The position numbers and the translations under genes were made by a program. DNA of 64,000 nt from Patescibacteria group bacterium (GTDB taxonomy: Bacteria > Patescibacteriota > Minisyncoccia > Phycocordibacterales > BOKC01): the NCBI GenBank assembly GCA_038062955.1, contig JBBTWE010000001.1, positions 453,640 to 517,639 of the forward strand, in the 5' to 3' direction. This document shows positions 9,335 through 48,616 of the stretch, piece by piece. The first letter of the stretch is position 1. Each line of letters begins with the position of its first letter. The notes under the pieces are model-generated. The model saw nothing but the letters and a program-made list of their open reading frames with translations, ran no database searches and was not told the origin of the DNA.

Positions 9335-9525
9335 ATCCGACGCATCTCTGCGTTACTTCGCTCCGAGCCTCCCTCAACGTATCATTAAATACGTCTCGGT
9401 ATGGTTCTGATTTCTACACCATAGAAATCATGTCGGGAGATTTTTTATCACGAAGTGATATAAAATTTCCGACTCGCTTGCGCCTTGATCTGCATTCGGC
9501 TCTGTAAGTCCTAAAAGTTAGTTTA
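9335..9525 (+). repeat. Dispersed intergenic repeat family, copy B (longest form, carries all modules)
   Basis: Contains the ccgacgcatctc start, the cttcgctccgagcctccctc...cgtctcggtatggttc hairpin module, the gaaatcatgtcgg...tatcacgaagtgata...ccgactcg module and the gcgccttgatctgcattc tail. Confidence 0.85.
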
Positions 9526-10546: not shown

Positions 10547-12335
<1,789 letters not shown>

Positions 12336-12751: not shown

Positions 12752-12864
12752 AAATTTAAAAACTTTCAGATTTGAGCGCGGTTTTAACGAGTCAGAAATT
12801 TTATATCACTTCGTGATAAAAAATCTTCCGACATGATTTTTGTGGTGCAAAAATCAGAAATGTG
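12752..12864 (-). repeat. Dispersed intergenic repeat family, copy D (inverted relative to copy C, upstream of groES)
   Basis: Reverse complement is about 95% identical to copy C. Confidence 0.85.
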
Positions 12865-13004
12865 CCAAATGAGGAAGTTTTTTGGGGTGGACGTATTATA
12901 GAGGAATTAAAAACAGTAAGTCAACAAAAGAAGATTCCACTAGAGTTTATAGATTTTTATCTAGGTCATATAAAACGATAACTCCACTGACTACCACGGT
13001 CATC

Positions 13005-19471: not shown

Positions 19472-20203
19472 TTATATATTAGCCATACAGCTTTTAAATG
19501 CTGATGTTTCTGTCCAGCCACACTTTCCATTTGTTTGTCTTTCACACACCGCCTCCTTATAACAAGCGTACTCTGGCAAAAATTCACAAGTACTCATAAC
19601 GTTTTCATCTGAACAAATCTGCCCACTACACCCTGTCGGTTTGCATTCTTTGAGTGAGACATTATTAGATTTAAATTTAACTGGTATTTCCAATTTATTA
19701 TCATATTCTGGAAGCCCCGATGGATTATCTTTTTCTAGGACCAAAACCCCACTCGTTCCCGTACCAGCATTAAAATTAATCGTTGCGGTAAAAGGCACAA
19801 AATCTTCCGTCATCCATTCCCCTTCCGCTTGCGCGATTCCACTCCCCAAAACTTCCCCACTTAAACTTTTTATTTTCACAGGAAAACTGGCTTCAAAAAA
19901 CCAATATCCTCGAGCTTCCCCTTTTATCACAAGAGGGCTCGTTACCACACTATTCTGTGTTGGAGTTTCCACAACAATCAAATCTTCTTTGCTATTTACG
20001 TTCCCGATTTCCTCGACAAAATTTCTACCATCTGGCGTTTTACACTGTCTTGGATAGGATTCCATTATCGGGAATCCATTATCTGCGCATTCCTGAAAAC
20101 TGTTTATTTTTGCAACTGCCCCATTATCTCTAAAATAAAATATTACGAAAAACAGAACGATTAACGTAATTATAGACAGGGAAATTAAAAAGGTTTTTCT
20201 CAT
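19472..20203 (-). CDS. Secreted or membrane-anchored protein with Gmad2/GerMN-like domain and Cys-rich C-terminus
   Basis: Signal anchor MRKTFLISLSIITLIVLFFVIF. 10 Cys in the last 60 aa. Confidence 0.55.
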   Translation of the reverse strand: MRKTFLISLSIITLIVLFFVIFYFRDNGAVAKINSFQECADNGFPIMESYPRQCKTPDGRNFVEEIGNVNSKEDLIVVETPTQNSVVTSPLVIKGEARGYWFFEASFPVKIKSLSGEVLGSGIAQAEGEWMTEDFVPFTATINFNAGTGTSGVLVLEKDNPSGLPEYDNKLEIPVKFKSNNVSLKECKPTGCSGQICSDENVMSTCEFLPEYACYKEAVCERQTNGKCGWTETSAFKSCMANI

Positions 20204-20381: not shown

Positions 20382-23300
20382 TTAAGACGACACACACCCA
20401 GAAAAATTACAATTTAAAAGCCAAGGGGAAAACACGGCATTGCCATAAATCTGATCGCCTGTGCCTCCGGGATTATTTGTGTGTCTCGGTCCGCTTGTAT
20501 CCCCCCACCAATTGTCTCGAGCCACGACATTGGATCCATTTCCAGCATTTAGCCCATAACGTAGATTTTCAGCAATATCGCTTTTTGTTATCGACATATT
20601 TCCAGTGTTACCTGCTGCTTTATTTATACCATAGCCGTTTTGATAGATAGCGCTCGAATCTATATTGAGTGTTCCTTGCCCATTATTCATGGACACTACC
20701 CCCAAAATAGAGCAAAAGAATTGAGCGTAACATTTGCCACCGTACCGCAACACAGCATTCGATATGGTAGAAGTGCTATTGCCATAAAGAACGATGCCGA
20801 CATAGTCCTCTCTGGCAGGATAAGAGCCATAACCATCACCATTAGAATCACCGCCAATAAAATCATCTTTGTAAGAAGTGAAATAAATTTTATTTTGTTT
20901 TTTCCCTTGCGCCACAAATGCTCCACCTACCCACAAAGATGAGCTGTCGGCCTGAAATTTGACCACCGTTCCCGGATTTATGGTCAAAGATTTAGAACCT
21001 GTCGAAAAACTTCCGACTATAAACGGCACACCAGGATTCCAGGTTTGATTTTCTTTGGCACTTCCATAAAGATAAAACCCATTTGTTGAAGTACCGCTCG
21101 TGCGGTTCCCAGAATTAACAAAATCAATTTGAGTTTGATAGCCACTGCCAAAATTACCATCGCCGAATTGATTGTTCGAAAAACTAGTGTTAGTAATAGA
21201 AATATTATGATCCCCAGACTGCCCAATGACATACACACCATAATGTCCACTTTTTGTAATCACACTTTTTTCAATAGAAAGACCTATAGGACCGCCATAG
21301 GGATTTATTGCAATAACTCCACTATAGGTGCTGTTAGTAATGGAAGTGTTACTGATCGTTGTGGTTGCGGAACCTTGTGAATAAACACCGTATCTATTAT
21401 TTATAAACGTACTCAATGAAATATTGATTGGAATTGTGCCGTAATGGGAAATTCCTCCTCGAGCAGAACACGACCCCCAATGACAATAATCAGCGCCTCC
21501 ATATTTAATCACTACATTTGAAATATCAGCGCCTCCTGCGATATGTATTCCTGGATAATCTCCGGCACTTGGTGTCGTGATTGAACCGTCACCATTTGAA
21601 TCCCCTCCCACAGAATCATCTTTTAGGGATGTGAAATAAATCGGTACTCCGGATGTGCCGTTAGCGACCAGAGACCCAAGGACATAGAGAGAAGCAAATT
21701 GTCCATCAACAAACTTCACGATTGTCCCAGGGTTTATTGTAAGAGTGGAATTAGTGGGCACATCTATTCGCCCGTCTATAATAAACGGAACCCCTGGATT
21801 CCAAGTGTGATTTGTGATCAAGGGTCCGCCAATATGAAAACCGCTTTTTGTGGTTCCTGCAGTGGTATTGCCGTGATTTATAAAATTAATTATTGACTGC
21901 CCAGAGATAACTGCATCCCCCTCTGTGTTGTTAACAAAATTAGTGTCAGTGATGGTAGCGTCGATAGCAATATTTTGACTTCCATAGGCATGCACACCGT
22001 AGCTTCCATTCTCTGAAATTGTTGAGTTGGAAATAGAGAGTTTTACAGGTATTCCATAATTGCCATAAGCTTTAACACCTATGTCTCCGCTTTGAGTGAT
22101 TGTGCTATTTTTAATAGTTAAATCTACCGAATTTACACCTTCTATTCCAGATAATGTACTGCTCGCAACGGTACTGTTTACAAAATTTATAACACCGCCT
22201 GAGCTAGTTATGCCAATTCGATTATCGATTATAGTAGTGGAAGTGGCGTTAGTGCTTCCACCTAAATTTATGATTGAAGCTCCAGAAGGATACGAAGAGC
22301 AACCAAACACCCCACACCAGAGATAACCTCCATAACGAATCACAACATTTTCTAGATTTATGGTTCCTCCTCCATAATTTATGAGGCCTATAAAATCACC
22401 GGTGGCTGGAGTGGAAGCATTCCCATCTCCATTGTTGTCCCCGCCTATCGAATCATCTTTGTACGAAGTAAAATAAATTTTATTTTGTGGAGTGCCTTGC
22501 GCGACAAGGGAACCTTCTACCCGAATAAAGTTTTGTCGAGTTTGAAACTTAACAACTGCTCCCGAATTTATCGTAAGCGTTACTCCAGGATTTATTGTCA
22601 CTGGACCCGCAAGAAGATACACCCTCCCACCGACCCATGTGGTGTTTTGACTGACATATCCAGAAACATTTGTGATGGGGAGAGTGTTAGAGGTTGGCGG
22701 GGTGAGAGATGGCACAGTGGTTGTCCAAAGAAAACCTATATTATGTGGCCAAGGATCAATCTGTACTGGAGCATTTGATAAAGGAGACCACCCATATGGA
22801 TCAATATTTTGTCCGCCAGTCTGAAATTGCCGAAGACCAAAATGCAAGTGTGGTCCACCAGTGCAACTCCCCGTATTTCCAGATAAAGCAATACGAGTAA
22901 ATCTATCTTATCCCCACGTAATACCGGACTGTTAATAGCAAAATAATTGGAATTAGCCTTTAGGTGAGCATAAACCGAACACTGATTCTGTATGGGGTGA
23001 AGTATGGCCATATGAAAACCATACCCTACTGTATGGTTTGGATTTTCCCACCCAGCACGATGAATTACACCGCTATCAGCAGCATAAATATTTTTCCCTT
23101 CTATGCGAGTACCATAATCTATTCCATGATGGTTATCATAACAACCGAAACCATTATTGTAAGAACCACAAGAACTAAGAGATGCCCCAAGACCTTGATA
23201 AATCAATCCTGTAAACCTTGTCATTTGGCCTAAGACACTATCATGGTCAAACCATGAGGTTGTGCTTATATCAGGATCAGTAATATCATCGATTGGTAGA

Positions 23301-23419
23301 GTATAGTAACTTGCAAAAACATAAGATGGCAATAGAAAAAATACACTTATAAATATATATTTATAAGTAAATAAGATTTTAATTTTATTTGATAACTTTG
23401 TATTCCCAAACATATCCAT
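20382..23419 (-). pseudogene. Secreted M23 peptidase fused to a triple-module parallel beta-helix protein, interrupted by a frameshift near 22895-22915
   Basis: ORF 22736-23419 carries a signal peptide plus M23 motifs HGIDYG...YAHL. The M23 motif GNTGSCTGGPHLHFG continues in the frame of ORF 20382-22847, upstream of its nominal TTG start. The downstream part has three repeats of FTSYKDD.IGGD.NGDG (about 220 aa each). May be a true pseudogene, a sequencing error or a programmed shift. Confidence 0.6.
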
Positions 23420-24185
23420 CGTTTATAAATGTAATTATAGATCCATCTTCCGACCATCTAAAAGGTATCCAATCTGCATTATGAATATAAGTTAAATTAC
23501 TTCCGTCAGAATCTATAATCACTAAGTAACTAGTTTCTTGAGGAGAATTAAGGTTATAAGTCAAAAAAGCTATTTTATTTCCTAAAGGAGACCATTTGAT
23601 GTAATCAAAACCACTACTACCATAACCCTCTACAATAACCCTGTCAGAGCCATCATTCGAGCGAAGGTACAAATCTACGCTGTTTGCTCCAGTCACATAA
23701 GAAATACTTTTATCCTTGGGAGAATAAGCGGCACTATAAGTATCTCTTGGTAATCCTGCATCGTAGTAATTTCCTTGAATATCTAGATAATAAATTTTAA
23801 GATCCCAGCTAGCATACAATATCACCTTGGTACTATCTGAAGTCCAGCCAATAAAATAACCCCACTCATCGTTAGTCAATCTATTACCCTGGTCATCTGT
23901 AATGTAGTTTTTATCCCCCTCTTCTAATCTCTCAGCAAGCACAACTTTATATTTTTTATTTGGTGAAAAAGTGTGTGAATTTTCAAATTCTATTTCAGTT
24001 TGTTCGGTAGTTTCCATTACTCTCTTTACATCATTTTTATCTGCTTCTTTAGGGATATTCACAGGTTCAGTGTTTTGCACAACTGGTTCTGTTGTGGGAG
24101 CAATTGTTTTATTAACAGATAATAAATAGAACAGGCCAATAAGAACCAAAACGATAATGATGATTGCGATGATTTTGTTTTTCAT
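23385..24185 (-). CDS. Membrane-anchored PD40/TolB-like beta-propeller protein
   Basis: N-terminal TM helix. Repeated ...SPDGSKIAF / DGSxI... blades. Confidence 0.6.
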   Translation of the reverse strand: MKNKIIAIIIIVLVLIGLFYLLSVNKTIAPTTEPVVQNTEPVNIPKEADKNDVKRVMETTEQTEIEFENSHTFSPNKKYKVVLAERLEEGDKNYITDDQGNRLTNDEWGYFIGWTSDSTKVILYASWDLKIYYLDIQGNYYDAGLPRDTYSAAYSPKDKSISYVTGANSVDLYLRSNDGSDRVIVEGYGSSGFDYIKWSPLGNKIAFLTYNLNSPQETSYLVIIDSDGSNLTYIHNADWIPFRWSEDGSIITFINDGYVWEYKVIK

Positions 24186-24203
24186 ATGATTTAATATTAA
24201 TTT

Positions 24204-25397
24204 TTAATCTACTAGTAATGGATAAGATTTTAATTGCTCATCATGCGTTAATTGTTCCGCCTCGCCCATCTCATCAATTGACCAGATTTGTCTGCTTCCG
24301 TTAATCTCGCGAGAAAACACAATCTCGTTTCCGTCGCGAGAATAGTTAGTCTGCTCAACAAAACCATCCCCAAAATTAGTTAAAGAGATGAGAGCTTTTT
24401 GGTTTACATCATACTTCCAAAGATTTGCCCCTTTTGTAAAAATAATTTTTGCGCCGTCCGAAGACCAAACTGGCGGATAATTCCAATTAACGCCCGAAAT
24501 TCTTTCAGCGCCTGAACCATCTGAATTAATCACCCATATCTCACTTTTTTCTTCATTAATAGCAAAATCTGATTTTAGAAATGCAATTTTATCCCCATTC
24601 GGTGAGAAACGAACCCAAGCAAAGATATTTTTATCGCCTTCGAGCAAAAGTTTGTCTTTCCCTTTTGTGTCTCTTATATAAATCGTTGAATCATCGGTTC
24701 CAGTTTTTGTAAGAGTATAAACAATACTTTTATCTTTAGAACTAACGTCCGCATTAGCAACTCCTATTGGTAACTTAGAATCATAATATTTACCGTTCAC
24801 ATTCAAATAATAAATTTGGCGGCCTCGAGCGTTTTCTTCAAAGCCGGAAAGAAAAAGTAGAACACCGGTACTATCTGGCAACCATGAAATAGCGTAACCA
24901 GGTTTTACATCAGTGATCATATTTCCTTCAAGATCAGCGATGTAAGTTTCTGTTTTCTCCTCACTACTTACAGTGACAGCGATTAATTCTCTATTAGGCG
25001 ACAAATATATAAATTTTCTGTAATTATCAAAATTATCTTTATCTATAGTTACAGCGTCACTAGAATCCCCCATTGATTCTTTATTGATAACACTATGTCC
25101 GAAATTATTGACCAACTCCGACACATAAATTAATGAAGATTCTTTTTCTATTGGGATTTCTTTTTCTGCTAGTGCTTCCGTGACATCTTCATCTTTTATT
25201 TCTACAGAAACATCACTATTCATATTTTCCACCTCAAGAATTTTCTCATTATTATCTATCCCCAACTCAACTATCTCTGTCACATCAGAATCCATGGCTT
25301 TTGCTTGAGGGTTTCCAAACGTAATATCCAATATAAAAATAATCAAGAAAATAGAGGTAATTGCCACAAACAAAGTCTCGGTTTTGAGATTTTTCAT
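24204..25397 (-). CDS. Membrane-anchored PD40/TolB-like beta-propeller protein (paralog of 23385-24185)
   Basis: FSPNGDKIAFLKSD, EIWVINSDGSGAERIS, WSSDGAKIIFTKG. Start placed at MKNLKTETLF. The ORF frame stays open to 25451. Confidence 0.6.
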   Translation of the reverse strand: MKNLKTETLFVAITSIFLIIFILDITFGNPQAKAMDSDVTEIVELGIDNNEKILEVENMNSDVSVEIKDEDVTEALAEKEIPIEKESSLIYVSELVNNFGHSVINKESMGDSSDAVTIDKDNFDNYRKFIYLSPNRELIAVTVSSEEKTETYIADLEGNMITDVKPGYAISWLPDSTGVLLFLSGFEENARGRQIYYLNVNGKYYDSKLPIGVANADVSSKDKSIVYTLTKTGTDDSTIYIRDTKGKDKLLLEGDKNIFAWVRFSPNGDKIAFLKSDFAINEEKSEIWVINSDGSGAERISGVNWNYPPVWSSDGAKIIFTKGANLWKYDVNQKALISLTNFGDGFVEQTNYSRDGNEIVFSREINGSRQIWSIDEMGEAEQLTHDEQLKSYPLLVD

Positions 25398-25620
25398 ACC
25401 ATTCATTTGTACCATATATACCATTCCCCAACAATACATAACTTCCACCACCTTTTACCTAGAGTTTTCTTTACATTTCGAGCTGAAGTGATAAAATAGG
25501 CTTATGTTTCCGAATCGATCACTTTTATTAATCAAAGAGTTCACCGAGAGTGACTTAAATTGTCGCTCCCTAAGTAGTGTTTTGTTCGGAGAATTAAAAA
25601 TTTCATACTAAGTTATTTAG

Positions 25621-25650: not shown

Positions 25651-25798
25651 GTACCTAACACAAGTCAATATTAAGTTCTTTGTTGACAAAATCTTTGTTT
25701 CATGCTAACATAGACTTATTCATTAACAATCTGTCAAATAACCAAAAATAAAGGTTATTTTCACAAAACATACATTTTCATTAATCTAAACCCAACTT

Positions 25799-46214: not shown

Positions 46215-48017
46215 CTACTGGTGCAGGCCGATTTGGAGTTCATAGAGCTTTCTGTATTCCCCATTTTCTATTTTTAGAAGTTCGTCGTGATTGCCTCTCT
46301 CTACTATCGTTCCGTCTTTAAACACAAAAATTTTATCTGCTTTTCGGACAGTACTCAAGCGATGAGCAATGATGAAAGTGGTTTTGCCTTTCATAAGTTT
46401 TTCGAGAGACTCAGTGATTATTTTTTCTGATCCGGCATCGAGAGCAGAAGTTGGTTCATCGAGAACAAGTATTTTTGGATTTCTTAAAATTGCACGAGCA
46501 ATCGCGATCCTTTGTTTTTGACCAACAGAAAGTTTAATCCCTCGCTCCCCCACAATTTGCTCCCATTTAAGAGGAAATTTTTCGATAAATTCCAAGGCAT
46601 GTGCTTTTCGAGCGGCATCTATAATCTCTTTATCACTCGCATTGAAATTGCCGTATTTGATGTTCATTTCTATTGTGTCATTAAACAAAACGACTTCTTG
46701 CGGCACTACAGCAATCTGAGAACGGAGACTCCGTAAATTAATATTCCCTATTCTTTGTCCATCGATTAGAATTTGGCCTTTATCGGGAAAATGATAAGCC
46801 GAAATAAGGTCAATAAGAGTGCTTTTGCCCACTCCCGATTCGCCAACCAAAGCTATTACTTCCCCAGACTTCACAGAAAAAGAAACATCTTGCAGAACAG
46901 TTTTGTCTGCCTCATAAGAAAAATAGGTATTTTTAAATTCTATATCTCCTTTCAAATTGAGCTTAATGCTTCCGTGAGAGTCATAGTTCTCTGGTGAAAG
47001 TCCAAGAATCTTTTCGGTTTCTTGTAAATTTACAATGCCATTATGAATAGTTTGCCAACTACGAACAATCGCGATAAACGGTCCAAAAACCATTGCCGCA
47101 TAAGCATTAAAAGCCAAGAGTTCACCTATGGTCATATCTCCTTTCGAAATATAAAATACGGAAAGCACAAAGATCACTACTTGGGTAAATAAAATAATAA
47201 ACCGCTGAAAAAGCGTAAGGATACCCCAAATTTTAGTTATGGATACCCATGGAGACATCGCCCCACTCATACTATTTTCAATCCTCTCACCCTCATACAC
47301 TTCTGCACTAGCTTGCTTAACGGCCAAAGTATTTTCTGTGGCGTCATAGGCAATACCGAATGATTTTGATATTTTATCGTGATATTCTTTCTGGTGACCT
47401 CCGAGCGGCTGCACTTTTCGAAGAAGAACAAGTATGTAGATTATGAGCCCAGCAATCAAAACACAAGCGAGTACAGGTTTAATATAAAAAGCAACAATAA
47501 AAGCAATCAGAATACTGAGAATTTGTGGGGCAAGATCGATAATAATATTGCCAGTCAACACTTCAAGAGCATATGCTGATTGAGTAATTTTACTGCCGAT
47601 TTCTCCAATTTTTTGTTTTTTATGAAAAGAGATAGGTAACGTTAAAAGAAATCCGAAGCCTTTAGCAATATAATCCGACCACACGTAGAAACCCAAATAT
47701 TCGCTCATTAAATTAAGTCGCCAATCTAAAACATAAGTAATAAGTTGAATGACAAACCACGTCAAAAGTAAAATTGCGTAAAACGGAAAGACAACATCCA
47801 AAATACTGATCGAGGTTCGAACAATTATTGAATCAAAAAATTTACCAATAATAAAAGGGATTAAGCCATTTCCAATAGCAGAAAAGATACCCATCAAACT
47901 TAAAGAGATGAGATGTTTTTTATATTGACTCAAATAGGAAATTAAAATTTTAAAGCCAGTATATAGGCCTTCTTTGGTCAATTTTTCTATTTCTGTTTTG
48001 TCTTGATCCTGTGTCAT
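46215..48017 (-). CDS. ABC exporter, fused permease-ATPase (MsbA/type I exporter-like)
   Basis: Six N-terminal TM helices. Walker A GESGVGKST, signature LSVGQKQR, Walker B LVLDEPTSALD. Confidence 0.85.
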   Translation of the reverse strand: MTQDQDKTEIEKLTKEGLYTGFKILISYLSQYKKHLISLSLMGIFSAIGNGLIPFIIGKFFDSIIVRTSISILDVVFPFYAILLLTWFVIQLITYVLDWRLNLMSEYLGFYVWSDYIAKGFGFLLTLPISFHKKQKIGEIGSKITQSAYALEVLTGNIIIDLAPQILSILIAFIVAFYIKPVLACVLIAGLIIYILVLLRKVQPLGGHQKEYHDKISKSFGIAYDATENTLAVKQASAEVYEGERIENSMSGAMSPWVSITKIWGILTLFQRFIILFTQVVIFVLSVFYISKGDMTIGELLAFNAYAAMVFGPFIAIVRSWQTIHNGIVNLQETEKILGLSPENYDSHGSIKLNLKGDIEFKNTYFSYEADKTVLQDVSFSVKSGEVIALVGESGVGKSTLIDLISAYHFPDKGQILIDGQRIGNINLRSLRSQIAVVPQEVVLFNDTIEMNIKYGNFNASDKEIIDAARKAHALEFIEKFPLKWEQIVGERGIKLSVGQKQRIAIARAILRNPKILVLDEPTSALDAGSEKIITESLEKLMKGKTTFIIAHRLSTVRKADKIFVFKDGTIVERGNHDELLKIENGEYRKLYELQIGLHQ

Positions 48018-48046
48018 TCAAAGGATAATACCACAAGAAAAAGAAA

Positions 48047-48616
48047 TTAGTCTTTTGAGATGGTTTTAATGAATTGTTTTATATTTTTAATCGACTTATT
48101 TAGCACAGCATCATAAATTTCTTGTCCTGAAATATCCAAATTATGATCATTCCTATATTTTTTGAACGATAAAATTAATTCTCTTTGCTCACCTGTTAGA
48201 ACAACGTCGCCGATATTTAGAAATTTCTTTTTTCGATCTTCAAATTCTGCTCTTCCCACAAACCAAATATCTACTTTCCATTTTTCTTCCCCCAATCTTT
48301 GTTTTAAACCTATGTAATGTCCATGGGGAAATTCAGCGCCTTTACGACTATCATCCCAATCACCTTTTATAAAATAACTTCTAAACTTACCTTTCAAATA
48401 AAGAAATTTCAGTATATCCAAAACTTCTTCCGCTAAATAAGGATTTTCTCGAACAACGGTAATATCAATATCACCATGCATCATAACGTTCCCTGCATAA
48501 GCACCGGAAAAGAAAACATCACCAAAACTCTTCAGCTGACTGATAAGATCTGTCTCCTGTAGCAAAATATCTGCATTATTTTTAAACTTTCCGCTTGTTT
48601 GAGAGAGTTGAGACAT
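48047..48616 (-). CDS. Nucleotidyltransferase-fold protein (minimal NTase-like)
   Basis: FFSGAYAGNVMMHGDIDITVV fits the GS-x(9-13)-DxD NTase motif. Stop is 30 nt upstream of the ABC exporter start. Confidence 0.45.
   Translation of the reverse strand: MSQLSQTSGKFKNNADILLQETDLISQLKSFGDVFFSGAYAGNVMMHGDIDITVVRENPYLAEEVLDILKFLYLKGKFRSYFIKGDWDDSRKGAEFPHGHYIGLKQRLGEEKWKVDIWFVGRAEFEDRKKKFLNIGDVVLTGEQRELILSFKKYRNDHNLDISGQEIYDAVLNKSIKNIKQFIKTISKD

Follow-up and report, generated by a model that had tools for sequence, protein, structure and literature searches.

A split M23 peptidase–beta-helix gene with a doubled β strand at its joint suggests recombination between diverged alleles in a groundwater patescibacterium

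How did a gene for a secreted M23 peptidase come to break off in the middle of its catalytic domain and to continue in another reading frame? The gene in question lies on the minus strand (positions 20382–23419) of a 64-kb stretch of DNA, which was analyzed as a whole and is referred to here as the window, from a ~0.7-Mb Patescibacteria genome with 38% G+C that originates from groundwater of the Hainich well H43. An earlier reading of the same letters (the original prediction) had taken two adjacent open reading frames (ORFs) at this site for a single gene encoding a secreted M23 peptidase fused to a beta-helix and interrupted within the M23 part by a single-nucleotide indel, and had offered a recent pseudogene, a phase-variable surface protein or a base-calling error as explanations. 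We find that the two parts of the M23 domain resemble two different allele types of the family and that one β strand is encoded twice at the junction. Based on these results, we think it rather likely that the locus is a young pseudogene that arose from an out-of-register joint at the pentanucleotide GATAG between the divergent allele types.

An M23 domain divided between two reading frames

Reading of all three frames of the minus strand revealed that the M23 domain is divided between a 5' frame (frame A) and the −1 frame (frame B), which encodes the 3' part. The 227-aa ORF in frame A (ORF-A; 23419..22736) begins with a signal-like peptide (residues 1–36; 23419-23312), consisting of a K-rich N-region, a hydrophobic core and the sequence …FFLLPSYVFA ahead of SYYTLP, and continues through the N-terminal two thirds of the M23 domain, including the H97xxxD101 motif (23131-23117) and H152 of a YAHL motif (22966-22964). 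This 5' segment (residues 1–172; 22904..23419) ends with …VLRGDKI. The remaining ~55 codons of ORF-A (DLLVLLYLEIRGV…; 22736..22903), up to the stop codon at 22738-22736, are out of frame and lack homology to any family member, in line with the earlier description of an ORF that carries a signal peptide and M23 motifs up to RGDKI and then degenerates. Frame B is open from just past a TAA stop codon (22908..22910), which lies directly 5' of the joint and marks how far 5' the 3' reading frame can extend; from there it reads DRFTRIALSGNTGSCTGGPHLHFGLRQ… uninterrupted into an 821-aa ORF (ORF-B) and down to position 20382. The first part of this 3' segment (22620..22907) encodes the C-terminal third of the M23 domain, …IALSGNTGSCTGGPH186LH188F, with the HLH motif at 22850-22842, followed by a conserved linker (DPYGWSP…APVQIDPW…LWTTT…). 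The nominal TTG start codon of the 821-aa ORF (22847) is the leucine codon of the HLH motif; the remainder of the M23 domain, including HxH, indeed resides in the frame of this ORF but 5' of its annotated beginning. The frame switch is confined to positions 22903-22907.

Consequently to this arrangement, HxxxD and HxH occur together in no single ORF. The H97-H-G-I-D101 columns, which in M23 peptidases provide zinc ligands 1 and 2, are nearly invariant across 30 family members, and HxH (PH186LH188F) is likewise present and conserved, but in the −1 frame 3' of the joint. ORF-A alone matches the Pfam M23 profile (PF01551) over positions 2–69 of 96 with 30.0 bits (gathering threshold, 28.7 bits), while the joined frames match positions 2–96 with 46.5–61.9 bits, depending on how the frame is repaired. 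By these profile and motif matches, the ancestral gene is identified as a member of the M23 family, of which the present ORFs are fragments. In the following, the repaired protein is the product obtained after excision of 14 surplus nucleotides at the joint (see below); it comprises ~1,007 residues rather than the ~1,040 foreseen in the original prediction.

Three beta-helix modules follow the linker. Module 1 (279 aa, repaired residues 263–541; 21783..22619) matches the PF13229 Beta_helix profile of right-handed beta-helices with 40.8 bits (gathering threshold, 25.9 bits); module 2 (254 aa, repaired residues 542–795; 21021..21782) and module 3 with the C-terminal cap (212 aa; 20382..21020, ending in …NWWGDTSGPRHTNNPGGTGDQIYGNAVFSPWLLNCNFSGCVSS and the stop codon) were delimited, like module 1, by module alignment, supported for modules 1 and 2 by the strands of an AlphaFold2 (AF2) model. 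These internal repeats were not reported by a self-BLAST of the protein, but MAFFT alignment of the excised modules revealed a mutual identity of 38–46%, and each module contains the motif IYFTS(Y/L)KDDxxGGDxNGDG (at repaired residues 310, 589 and 840). The predicted number of modules and their motif were thereby borne out, while the predicted uniform length of ~220 aa was not.

In the AF2 model of the repaired protein (mean pLDDT 83.8, pTM 0.73), the M23 core is confident and a single strand (E171-176) crosses the joint; the beta-helix modules form a beta-solenoid of regular short strands, with pLDDT mostly >90 except for a loop in module 1 (residues 365–395). Foldseek matched the repaired M23 core with a probability of 1.00 to Csd1/2, ShyA, EnpA, lysostaphin and LytM (rmsd 1.5–2.9 Å over 100–118 residues), and the repaired protein also matched chain 5j1l_A by sequence (E 2.6e-8). 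With these solved M23 enzymes of the LytM/lysostaphin type (Helicobacter pylori Csd1/Csd2, 5j1l/5j1m; Vibrio cholerae ShyA, 6ue4; Enterococcus faecalis EnpA, 6smk; lysostaphin, 4qpb; LytM, 2b13), it shares HxxxD, HxH and an additional conserved histidine, but only 26–34% sequence identity, and the window copy is interrupted. Known M23 enzymes carry SH3b, LysM or coiled-coil partners; the C-terminal partner in the window gene, by contrast, consists of ~800 aa of beta-helix modules. The latter resemble beta-helix proteins (PF13229 and NosD-like PF05048) in their PF13229 match and the AF2 solenoid, but are built from a repeated 212–279-aa unit with an IYFTSxKDDxxGGDxNGDG loop. A PDB sequence search with the beta-helix part found no match to any solved structure; structurally nearest, with weak matches, are a GH87 alpha-1,3-glucanase (6k0p) and antigen 43 (7koh). 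Judging from the domains, intact family members would be secreted endopeptidases of peptidoglycan that are carried by a long stalk or binding array of beta-helices, with the bacterium's own wall and a host wall both being possible targets; the role in host attachment of an episymbiont, as proposed originally, is speculative.

The family is large, with several dozen intact proteins found that join an M23 head to 2–5 beta-helix modules, and two of its members are encoded at the corresponding position in relatives. Metagenome contig L012 (JGI Ga0163150_10002802) contains a single intact ORF for a 979-aa protein (P0002), followed 3' by genes for Gmad2, a 106-aa protein, YtxH, MFS, RNase J, SBP, Cpn10 and Cpn60 with 72–95% protein identity to their window counterparts. 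Contig L015 (JGI Ga0209542_10035485) contains an intact 1005-aa ORF with two propeller genes on its 5' side and Gmad2, the 106-aa protein, YtxH and MFS on its 3' side. In both cases the flanks are collinear with the window on both sides (67–95% protein identity); among the three lineages, flanking proteins have identities of ~77–92%, and those compared between the window and the two orthologous loci of 77–88%. The first 331 residues of the L015 protein equal P0117, the best N-terminal match of an exhaustive HMMER search, which was needed as a word-index search with the N-terminal 136 aa recovered only the query's own sequence; P0117 has no encoding contig on record, and L015 was recovered through a metagenome scan. 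When an alignment of four sequences was compared to a set of genome contigs that lacks the window's own genome, the matches were limited to one Harrisonbacteria relative (L008) and three M23 genes that are unrelated. The window gene, the L015 gene and P0002 have in common the signal peptide, the M23 domain, the linker, three beta-helix modules and a C-terminus of the form …PWLxNCNF(E/S)GCV(T/S)S, so that the end of module 3 is kept in both relatives. As both positional orthologues are single ORFs, not two separate genes, the ancestral state was one ORF, which settles the question of one gene versus two in favor of a single gene for a Sec-exported M23 zinc peptidase with beta-helix modules, interrupted within its M23 domain.

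The split recurs across assemblies. The junction string CGTGGGGATAAGATAGATTTACTCGTATTGCT is identical in seven loci (L001–L007) from six assemblies of groundwater from well H43, for which Patescibacteria have been described at the Hainich Critical Zone Exploratory (PMC8672522); the well is recognized from the contig names. Sources are the ENA assemblies ERZ1292638, ERZ1292626 (Hain_H43_01um_R3) and ERZ1292640 (Hain_H43_02um_R1), the Logan assemblies ERR3858116 and ERR3858133, and a 703,865-bp contig of GCA_964363395.1. The records sharing the junction are 99.995–100% identical to the window, and they stem from several read sets, different filter fractions, replicates and pipelines, their names showing differing assembly formats. 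Two ~0.7-Mb Patescibacteria contigs carry the same junction, and the exact frameshifted 227-aa product can be read on nine contigs. Conversely, a search of 5.8 billion protein clusters with the joined protein found no near-identical in-frame version. The same junction in seven loci from six assemblies and the lack of an in-frame protein together render an assembly or base-calling error very unlikely and leave phase variation unsupported. We hold with very high confidence that one ancestral gene has been disrupted at this locus and that the disruption is genuine and fixed.

Two allele types and a doubled β strand at the joint

Compared to all 31 intact homologues, the Pfam profile and solved M23 sequences, the window gene has a surplus of 14 nucleotides at the joint, i.e. 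five codons minus one base. Family members share a conserved hairpin, V-x-R-(G/F)-x-x-I-(A/G)-x-S-G-x-T-G, and the window encodes its R-x-x-x-I strand twice (CGTGGGGATAAGATAGATTTACTCGTATT; 22890..22918), as RGDKI in frame A (22918-22904) and directly thereafter, in a different sequence, as DRFTRI in frame B (22907-22890). None of the 31 intact homologues was found to have additional residues here. Excision of either 14-mer (22918-22905 or 22903-22890) restores one ORF that aligns without gaps across the joint to P0117/L015, P0004 and chain 5j1l_A. Removal of 14 nucleotides gave Pfam M23 scores of 61.9 or 53.9 bits, addition of the four nucleotides AGAT gave 56.5 bits, and addition of one nucleotide in the TTT run gave 51.3 bits; the last, as the poorest fit to the family, was rejected. 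The single-nucleotide indel expected near 22895-22915 was thus placed correctly, as the frames switch at 22903-22907, but a one-nucleotide change does not account for the 14-nt surplus and the doubled strand.

The two strand copies belong to different types of M23 domain. We refer to sequences marked by GWENP…GYGF and V-x-RGD-x-I as RG-type, and to sequences marked by TGxCTxGPHLHFGxRxxQTGG and APVQIDPW as RF-type. The L015 gene and P0002 are intact and uniform, RG or RF throughout, while the window gene is RG-type in its 5' segment and RF-type in its 3' segment, with the doubled strand and the frameshift in between. Upstream of the joint, the window protein is 56–60% identical to L015/P0117 and 53–56% identical to P0015 and P0004, but only 24–30% identical to P0002, much less than the 77% that proteins flanking the locus typically show in the L012 genome. 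Over ~70 residues downstream of the joint, identity is 75–85% to P0002 versus 42–53% to L015; further downstream, the L012 and L015 types are about equally similar and no longer discriminate. In sliding windows, identity over residues 1–160 was 0.53–0.70 to L015 (0.38 in one window) and 0.10–0.40 to P0002, and over residues 161–240 it was 0.75–0.85 to P0002 and 0.42–0.53 to L015. Frame-independent blastn comparisons traced L015 homology from 25149 to 23240 and from 23100 to 22946, and L012 homology from 22908 to 22423.

The change in affinity coincides with the frame switch. At three-way informative sites, a maximum chi-square test placed the breakpoint at residues 158–181 (chi2 41.4, permutation p ≤ 1e-4), with 63 sites matching P0117 and 14 matching P0002 before it, and 11 and 36 after it, and the preference at the level of the two groups flips between residues 160 and 181. 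The nearest neighbor in bootstrap replicates was RG-type in 1000/1000 upstream and RF-type in 994–996/1000 downstream. A mixture of RG and RF marks was seen in 0 of 31 intact homologues, and the pair of window protein and P0002 is the most extreme outlier in similarity before versus after the breakpoint (z 4.1, compared to a maximum of 3.0 among 449 intact pairs). Taken together, we consider it highly likely that the gene is an RG/RF hybrid whose two parts meet at the frameshift or no more than a few codons away from it. Recombination in the L012 and L015 lineages instead was rejected on grounds of parsimony: it needs two events, there is no intact mixed protein, and the doubled strand is found only in the window gene. 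The 64-kb window contains no second M23 paralogue, and each of the two relatives has a single M23 gene at the locus, so that there is no direct support for a deletion between tandem paralogues inside the window.

Origin of the joint and competing explanations

The sequence at the joint, GGGGATAA[GATAG]ATTTACT, suggests how the two types may have been connected. An RG-type parent would read …GAT AAG ATA Gcx (D-K-I-A) and an RF-type parent GAT AGA TTT ACT… (D-R-F-T), so that the two would overlap in the 5-nt microhomology GATAG (22903..22907), whose letters are read directly, whereas their parental reading is deduced from homologues. GATAG is compatible with K-I-A of the RG-type parent and with D-R of the RF-type parent. 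As it would fall in different codon phases of the two parents, a joint at this site would keep both strand copies and leave 14 surplus nucleotides and a −1 shift, exactly as observed. We slightly favor this one-step microhomology joint as the specific route. The likely mechanism is an illegitimate joining event at a microhomology that brought in a diverged allele, either from outside or from a paralogue, with the conserved flanks serving as an anchor, a pattern that would correspond to homology-facilitated illegitimate recombination. In transformable bacteria, this process combines conserved flanks with illegitimate joints at 3–10 bp of microhomology, and mosaic genes after uptake of diverged DNA have been described in Acinetobacter, S. 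pneumoniae and P. stutzeri (PMC6382021). The window gene resembles these cases in its conserved flanks, heterologous tract and putative 5-nt joint. It differs from them in that the event is reconstructed from one natural product, which is out of frame and presumably non-adaptive.

What remains of the gene is most likely a pseudogene, judging from its coding capacity. ORF-A would give rise to an exported fragment with HxxxD and H152 that, by homology to solved M23 enzymes, would be devoid of a catalytic histidine and of the third zinc ligand (HxH); the final strands of the core are missing as well. A signal peptide is absent from ORF-B, the recorded start calls of which disagree (821, 777 and 746 aa); beta-helix-only relatives each have their own signal peptide. 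The catalytic residues and an 841-codon frame are still intact, which would make the event recent relative to neutral decay. Of the options offered originally, the recent pseudogene fits best with these observations, the halves being otherwise undamaged and the orthologues intact.

Several points weigh against this interpretation. Neither parental allele was recovered; the closest sequences, L015 for the RG-type and L012 for the RF-type, have ~70% and ~67% DNA identity, respectively. With the parents unsampled, it is from relatives that the microhomology, a joint made in one step, the transfer direction and the DNA uptake route are all deduced. The eight residues preceding RGDKI, FAINSPVL, resemble P0002 specifically (6/8 residues, and 16/21 nt over the first seven codons, counted by hand); the exact crossover could thus be located slightly further upstream, by a few codons, or the tract may be patchy. 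Agreement between the parts before and after the breakpoint is only moderate across the family (r 0.42). The uniform junction was established from assemblies rather than reads, and minority in-frame variants are possible. The assignment as a pseudogene is itself drawn from sequence. Finally, the history may have had two steps, with an in-frame …RGDKIDRFTRIALSG… form preceding a small deletion.

The last point is the best-surviving alternative, although we consider it unlikely. According to this explanation, the ancestor was an already hybrid, in-frame gene (…VLRGDKIDRFTRIALSG…) with a tolerated hairpin insertion of 5–6 residues, from which one nucleotide or one AGAT of an (AGAT)3 repeat was subsequently lost; it is essentially the indel pseudogene of the original prediction, with loss of AGAT by slippage as an option. 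Indeed, the window contains AGATAGAT, a third AGAT restores the frame to give RGDKIDRFTRI with a Pfam score of 56.5 bits, and the length of the loop before the strand varies in the family, as in P0008. However, two events are required, extra residues at the joint are found in 0/31 intact homologues, the Pfam score is 5–10 bits below that of the 14-nt repair, and recombination is still needed to explain why the two strand copies are of hybrid origin.

Continued production of the full-length protein, from a phase-variable contingency gene or by programmed −1 ribosomal frameshifting, appears very improbable. It would suit a protein that is secreted or surface-exposed and encoded in a variable surface cluster of three genes, and a short AGAT duplication is present at the site, but in the interval 22700–23100 Tandem Repeats Finder detected no tract, (AGAT)2 being all that is present, and neither an X XXY YYZ slippery heptamer nor a long homopolymer occurs in 22890-22918. 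In addition, both syntenic orthologues are single-frame and lack the extra 14 nucleotides, every assembly has the same state, and no in-frame version was found in the collection of 5.8 billion clusters, all of which argues against the phase-variable surface protein considered earlier.

An error of sequencing, base calling or assembly, including a chimera assembled from two strains that occur together, is more improbable still. While coverage in the short-read assemblies is low (~4–5.6 according to contig names), the junction is the same in the seven loci irrespective of filter fraction, replicate and pipeline, as well as on the two ~0.7-Mb contigs, and the lesion is a heterologous surplus of 14 nucleotides rather than the length error of a homopolymer expected from a base-calling slip. 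Moreover, no more than 5 nt are common to the allele types at the joint, much less than the k-mer length of any assembler, and a graph chimera should therefore be unable to create it. Equally improbable are two distinct genes, one for a small M23-like protein and one for a beta-helix protein in its own right, as NCBI annotates them (MEK7552242.1 and MEK7552241.1, on a 701,796-bp "Patescibacteria group bacterium" contig; window 20382-23413): beta-helix-only homologues do exist, but unlike them ORF-B has no signal peptide, its three start calls disagree, the M23 domain is cut mid-way with HxH in the second ORF's frame 5' of every proposed start, ORF-A runs out in 55 codons without family homology, and the positional orthologues are single ORFs. 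The GenBank entries "M23 family metallopeptidase" (MEK7552242.1) and "beta-helix repeat protein" (MEK7552241.1) are halves of one broken gene, and the annotation is misleading in that an inference on genome content such as "secreted M23 hydrolase present" would be wrong for this ~0.7-Mb genome.

The surrounding surface cluster and related observations

The upstream neighbor of the M23 gene encodes a 266-aa membrane-anchored, PD40/Tricorn-like propeller protein (23385..24185, minus strand), the last 35 nt of which coincide, in another frame, with the first 35 nt of the M23 gene, including its start codon (window 23385-23419). L015 has this 35-nt overlap as well (1840-1874), and the peptide constrained by it, M-x-MFGNxKL, is conserved there; this conservation in the coding sequence suggests an operon with translational coupling. 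On the other side, a Gmad2/Heavy_Cys_CGP protein (19472..20203, minus strand) is encoded by the first gene of the syntenic flank common to L012 and L015.

Two genes for anchored surface proteins precede the locus in the window, L012 and L015 alike. The 266-aa protein is 53% identical to a 270-aa protein of L015, and only its residues 1–42 match a 206-aa protein of L012. When the genes for the 415-aa and 266-aa proteins (23385-25451, minus strand) are compared to L012 6347-7700, only the N-terminal membrane anchor and linker are common (58% over 89 aa; 74% over 42 aa). The ectodomains of the two proteins differ, being PD40/Tricorn-like propellers in the window and L015, but an unrelated domain of ~130 aa (…FKLEIVELP…LRNWVDNFIENQ…) in L012. 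On the basis of these alignments, it appears that close relatives have exchanged entire ectodomains at the upstream genes. An ABC transporter and a neighboring gene lie directly 5' of the surface cluster in L012 (3320-6201) but ~20 kb away in the window (46215-48616), indicating a rearrangement between the window lineage and L012 5' of the locus.

A tentative, less likely extension of these observations is that the three-gene surface cluster, composed of the genes for the 415-aa and 266-aa anchored proteins and the M23–beta-helix enzyme, is a hotspot at which ectodomain and enzyme cassettes are exchanged among Patescibacteria, via uptake of diverged DNA and recombination by anchor plus microhomology. 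If so, the frameshifted joint would be a failed exchange caught in the act and direct natural evidence of such recombination in bacteria of the candidate phyla radiation (CPR). The object itself is ordinary, being a gene of a known enzyme family, but its scar can be read with unusual clarity and suggests that diverged alleles have recombined at a variable surface-protein locus of a CPR bacterium. To our knowledge, little is known about DNA exchange in ultra-small, host-dependent Patescibacteria. A joint that retains both parental strand copies is a rare readable scar, for which a systematic search is feasible.

Proteins in which an M23 or other hydrolase head precedes 2–5 copies of the 210–280-aa beta-helix module form a family worth naming, as nearly all lack a functional name in their source records. 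The same beta-helix array is found behind other secreted hydrolase heads, namely matrixin (PF00413), thermolysin (PF02868), lipase/LCAT (PF02450 and PF01674) and cutinase (PF01083) domains, in P0026, P0038, P0041, P0071, P0073, P0074, P0082, P0086, P0092 and P0095. From its domain combinations, the module array looks like a reusable carrier for extracellular enzymes.

Two further observations concern the window outside the M23 gene. Position 25769 is G in the window and T in NODE_696 of ERZ1292638, the sole difference across 20.7 kb between these two assemblies of the same population, which indicates a very low population diversity. Furthermore, a repeated element of 72–119 nt occurs in three copies that are 86–92% identical (9405-9476 and 12208-12326 on the plus strand, 12761-12879 on the minus strand), two of which form an inverted pair around the Cpn10 (groES) gene, just 5' of Cpn60. 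The element has no match in Rfam, where the search returned nothing relevant. A 119-nt copy has terminal inverted ends (AACTTTCA…TGAAAGTT) and a predicted fold of −33.6 kcal/mol (z −5.4), and the element could be MITE-like or a structured regulatory RNA.

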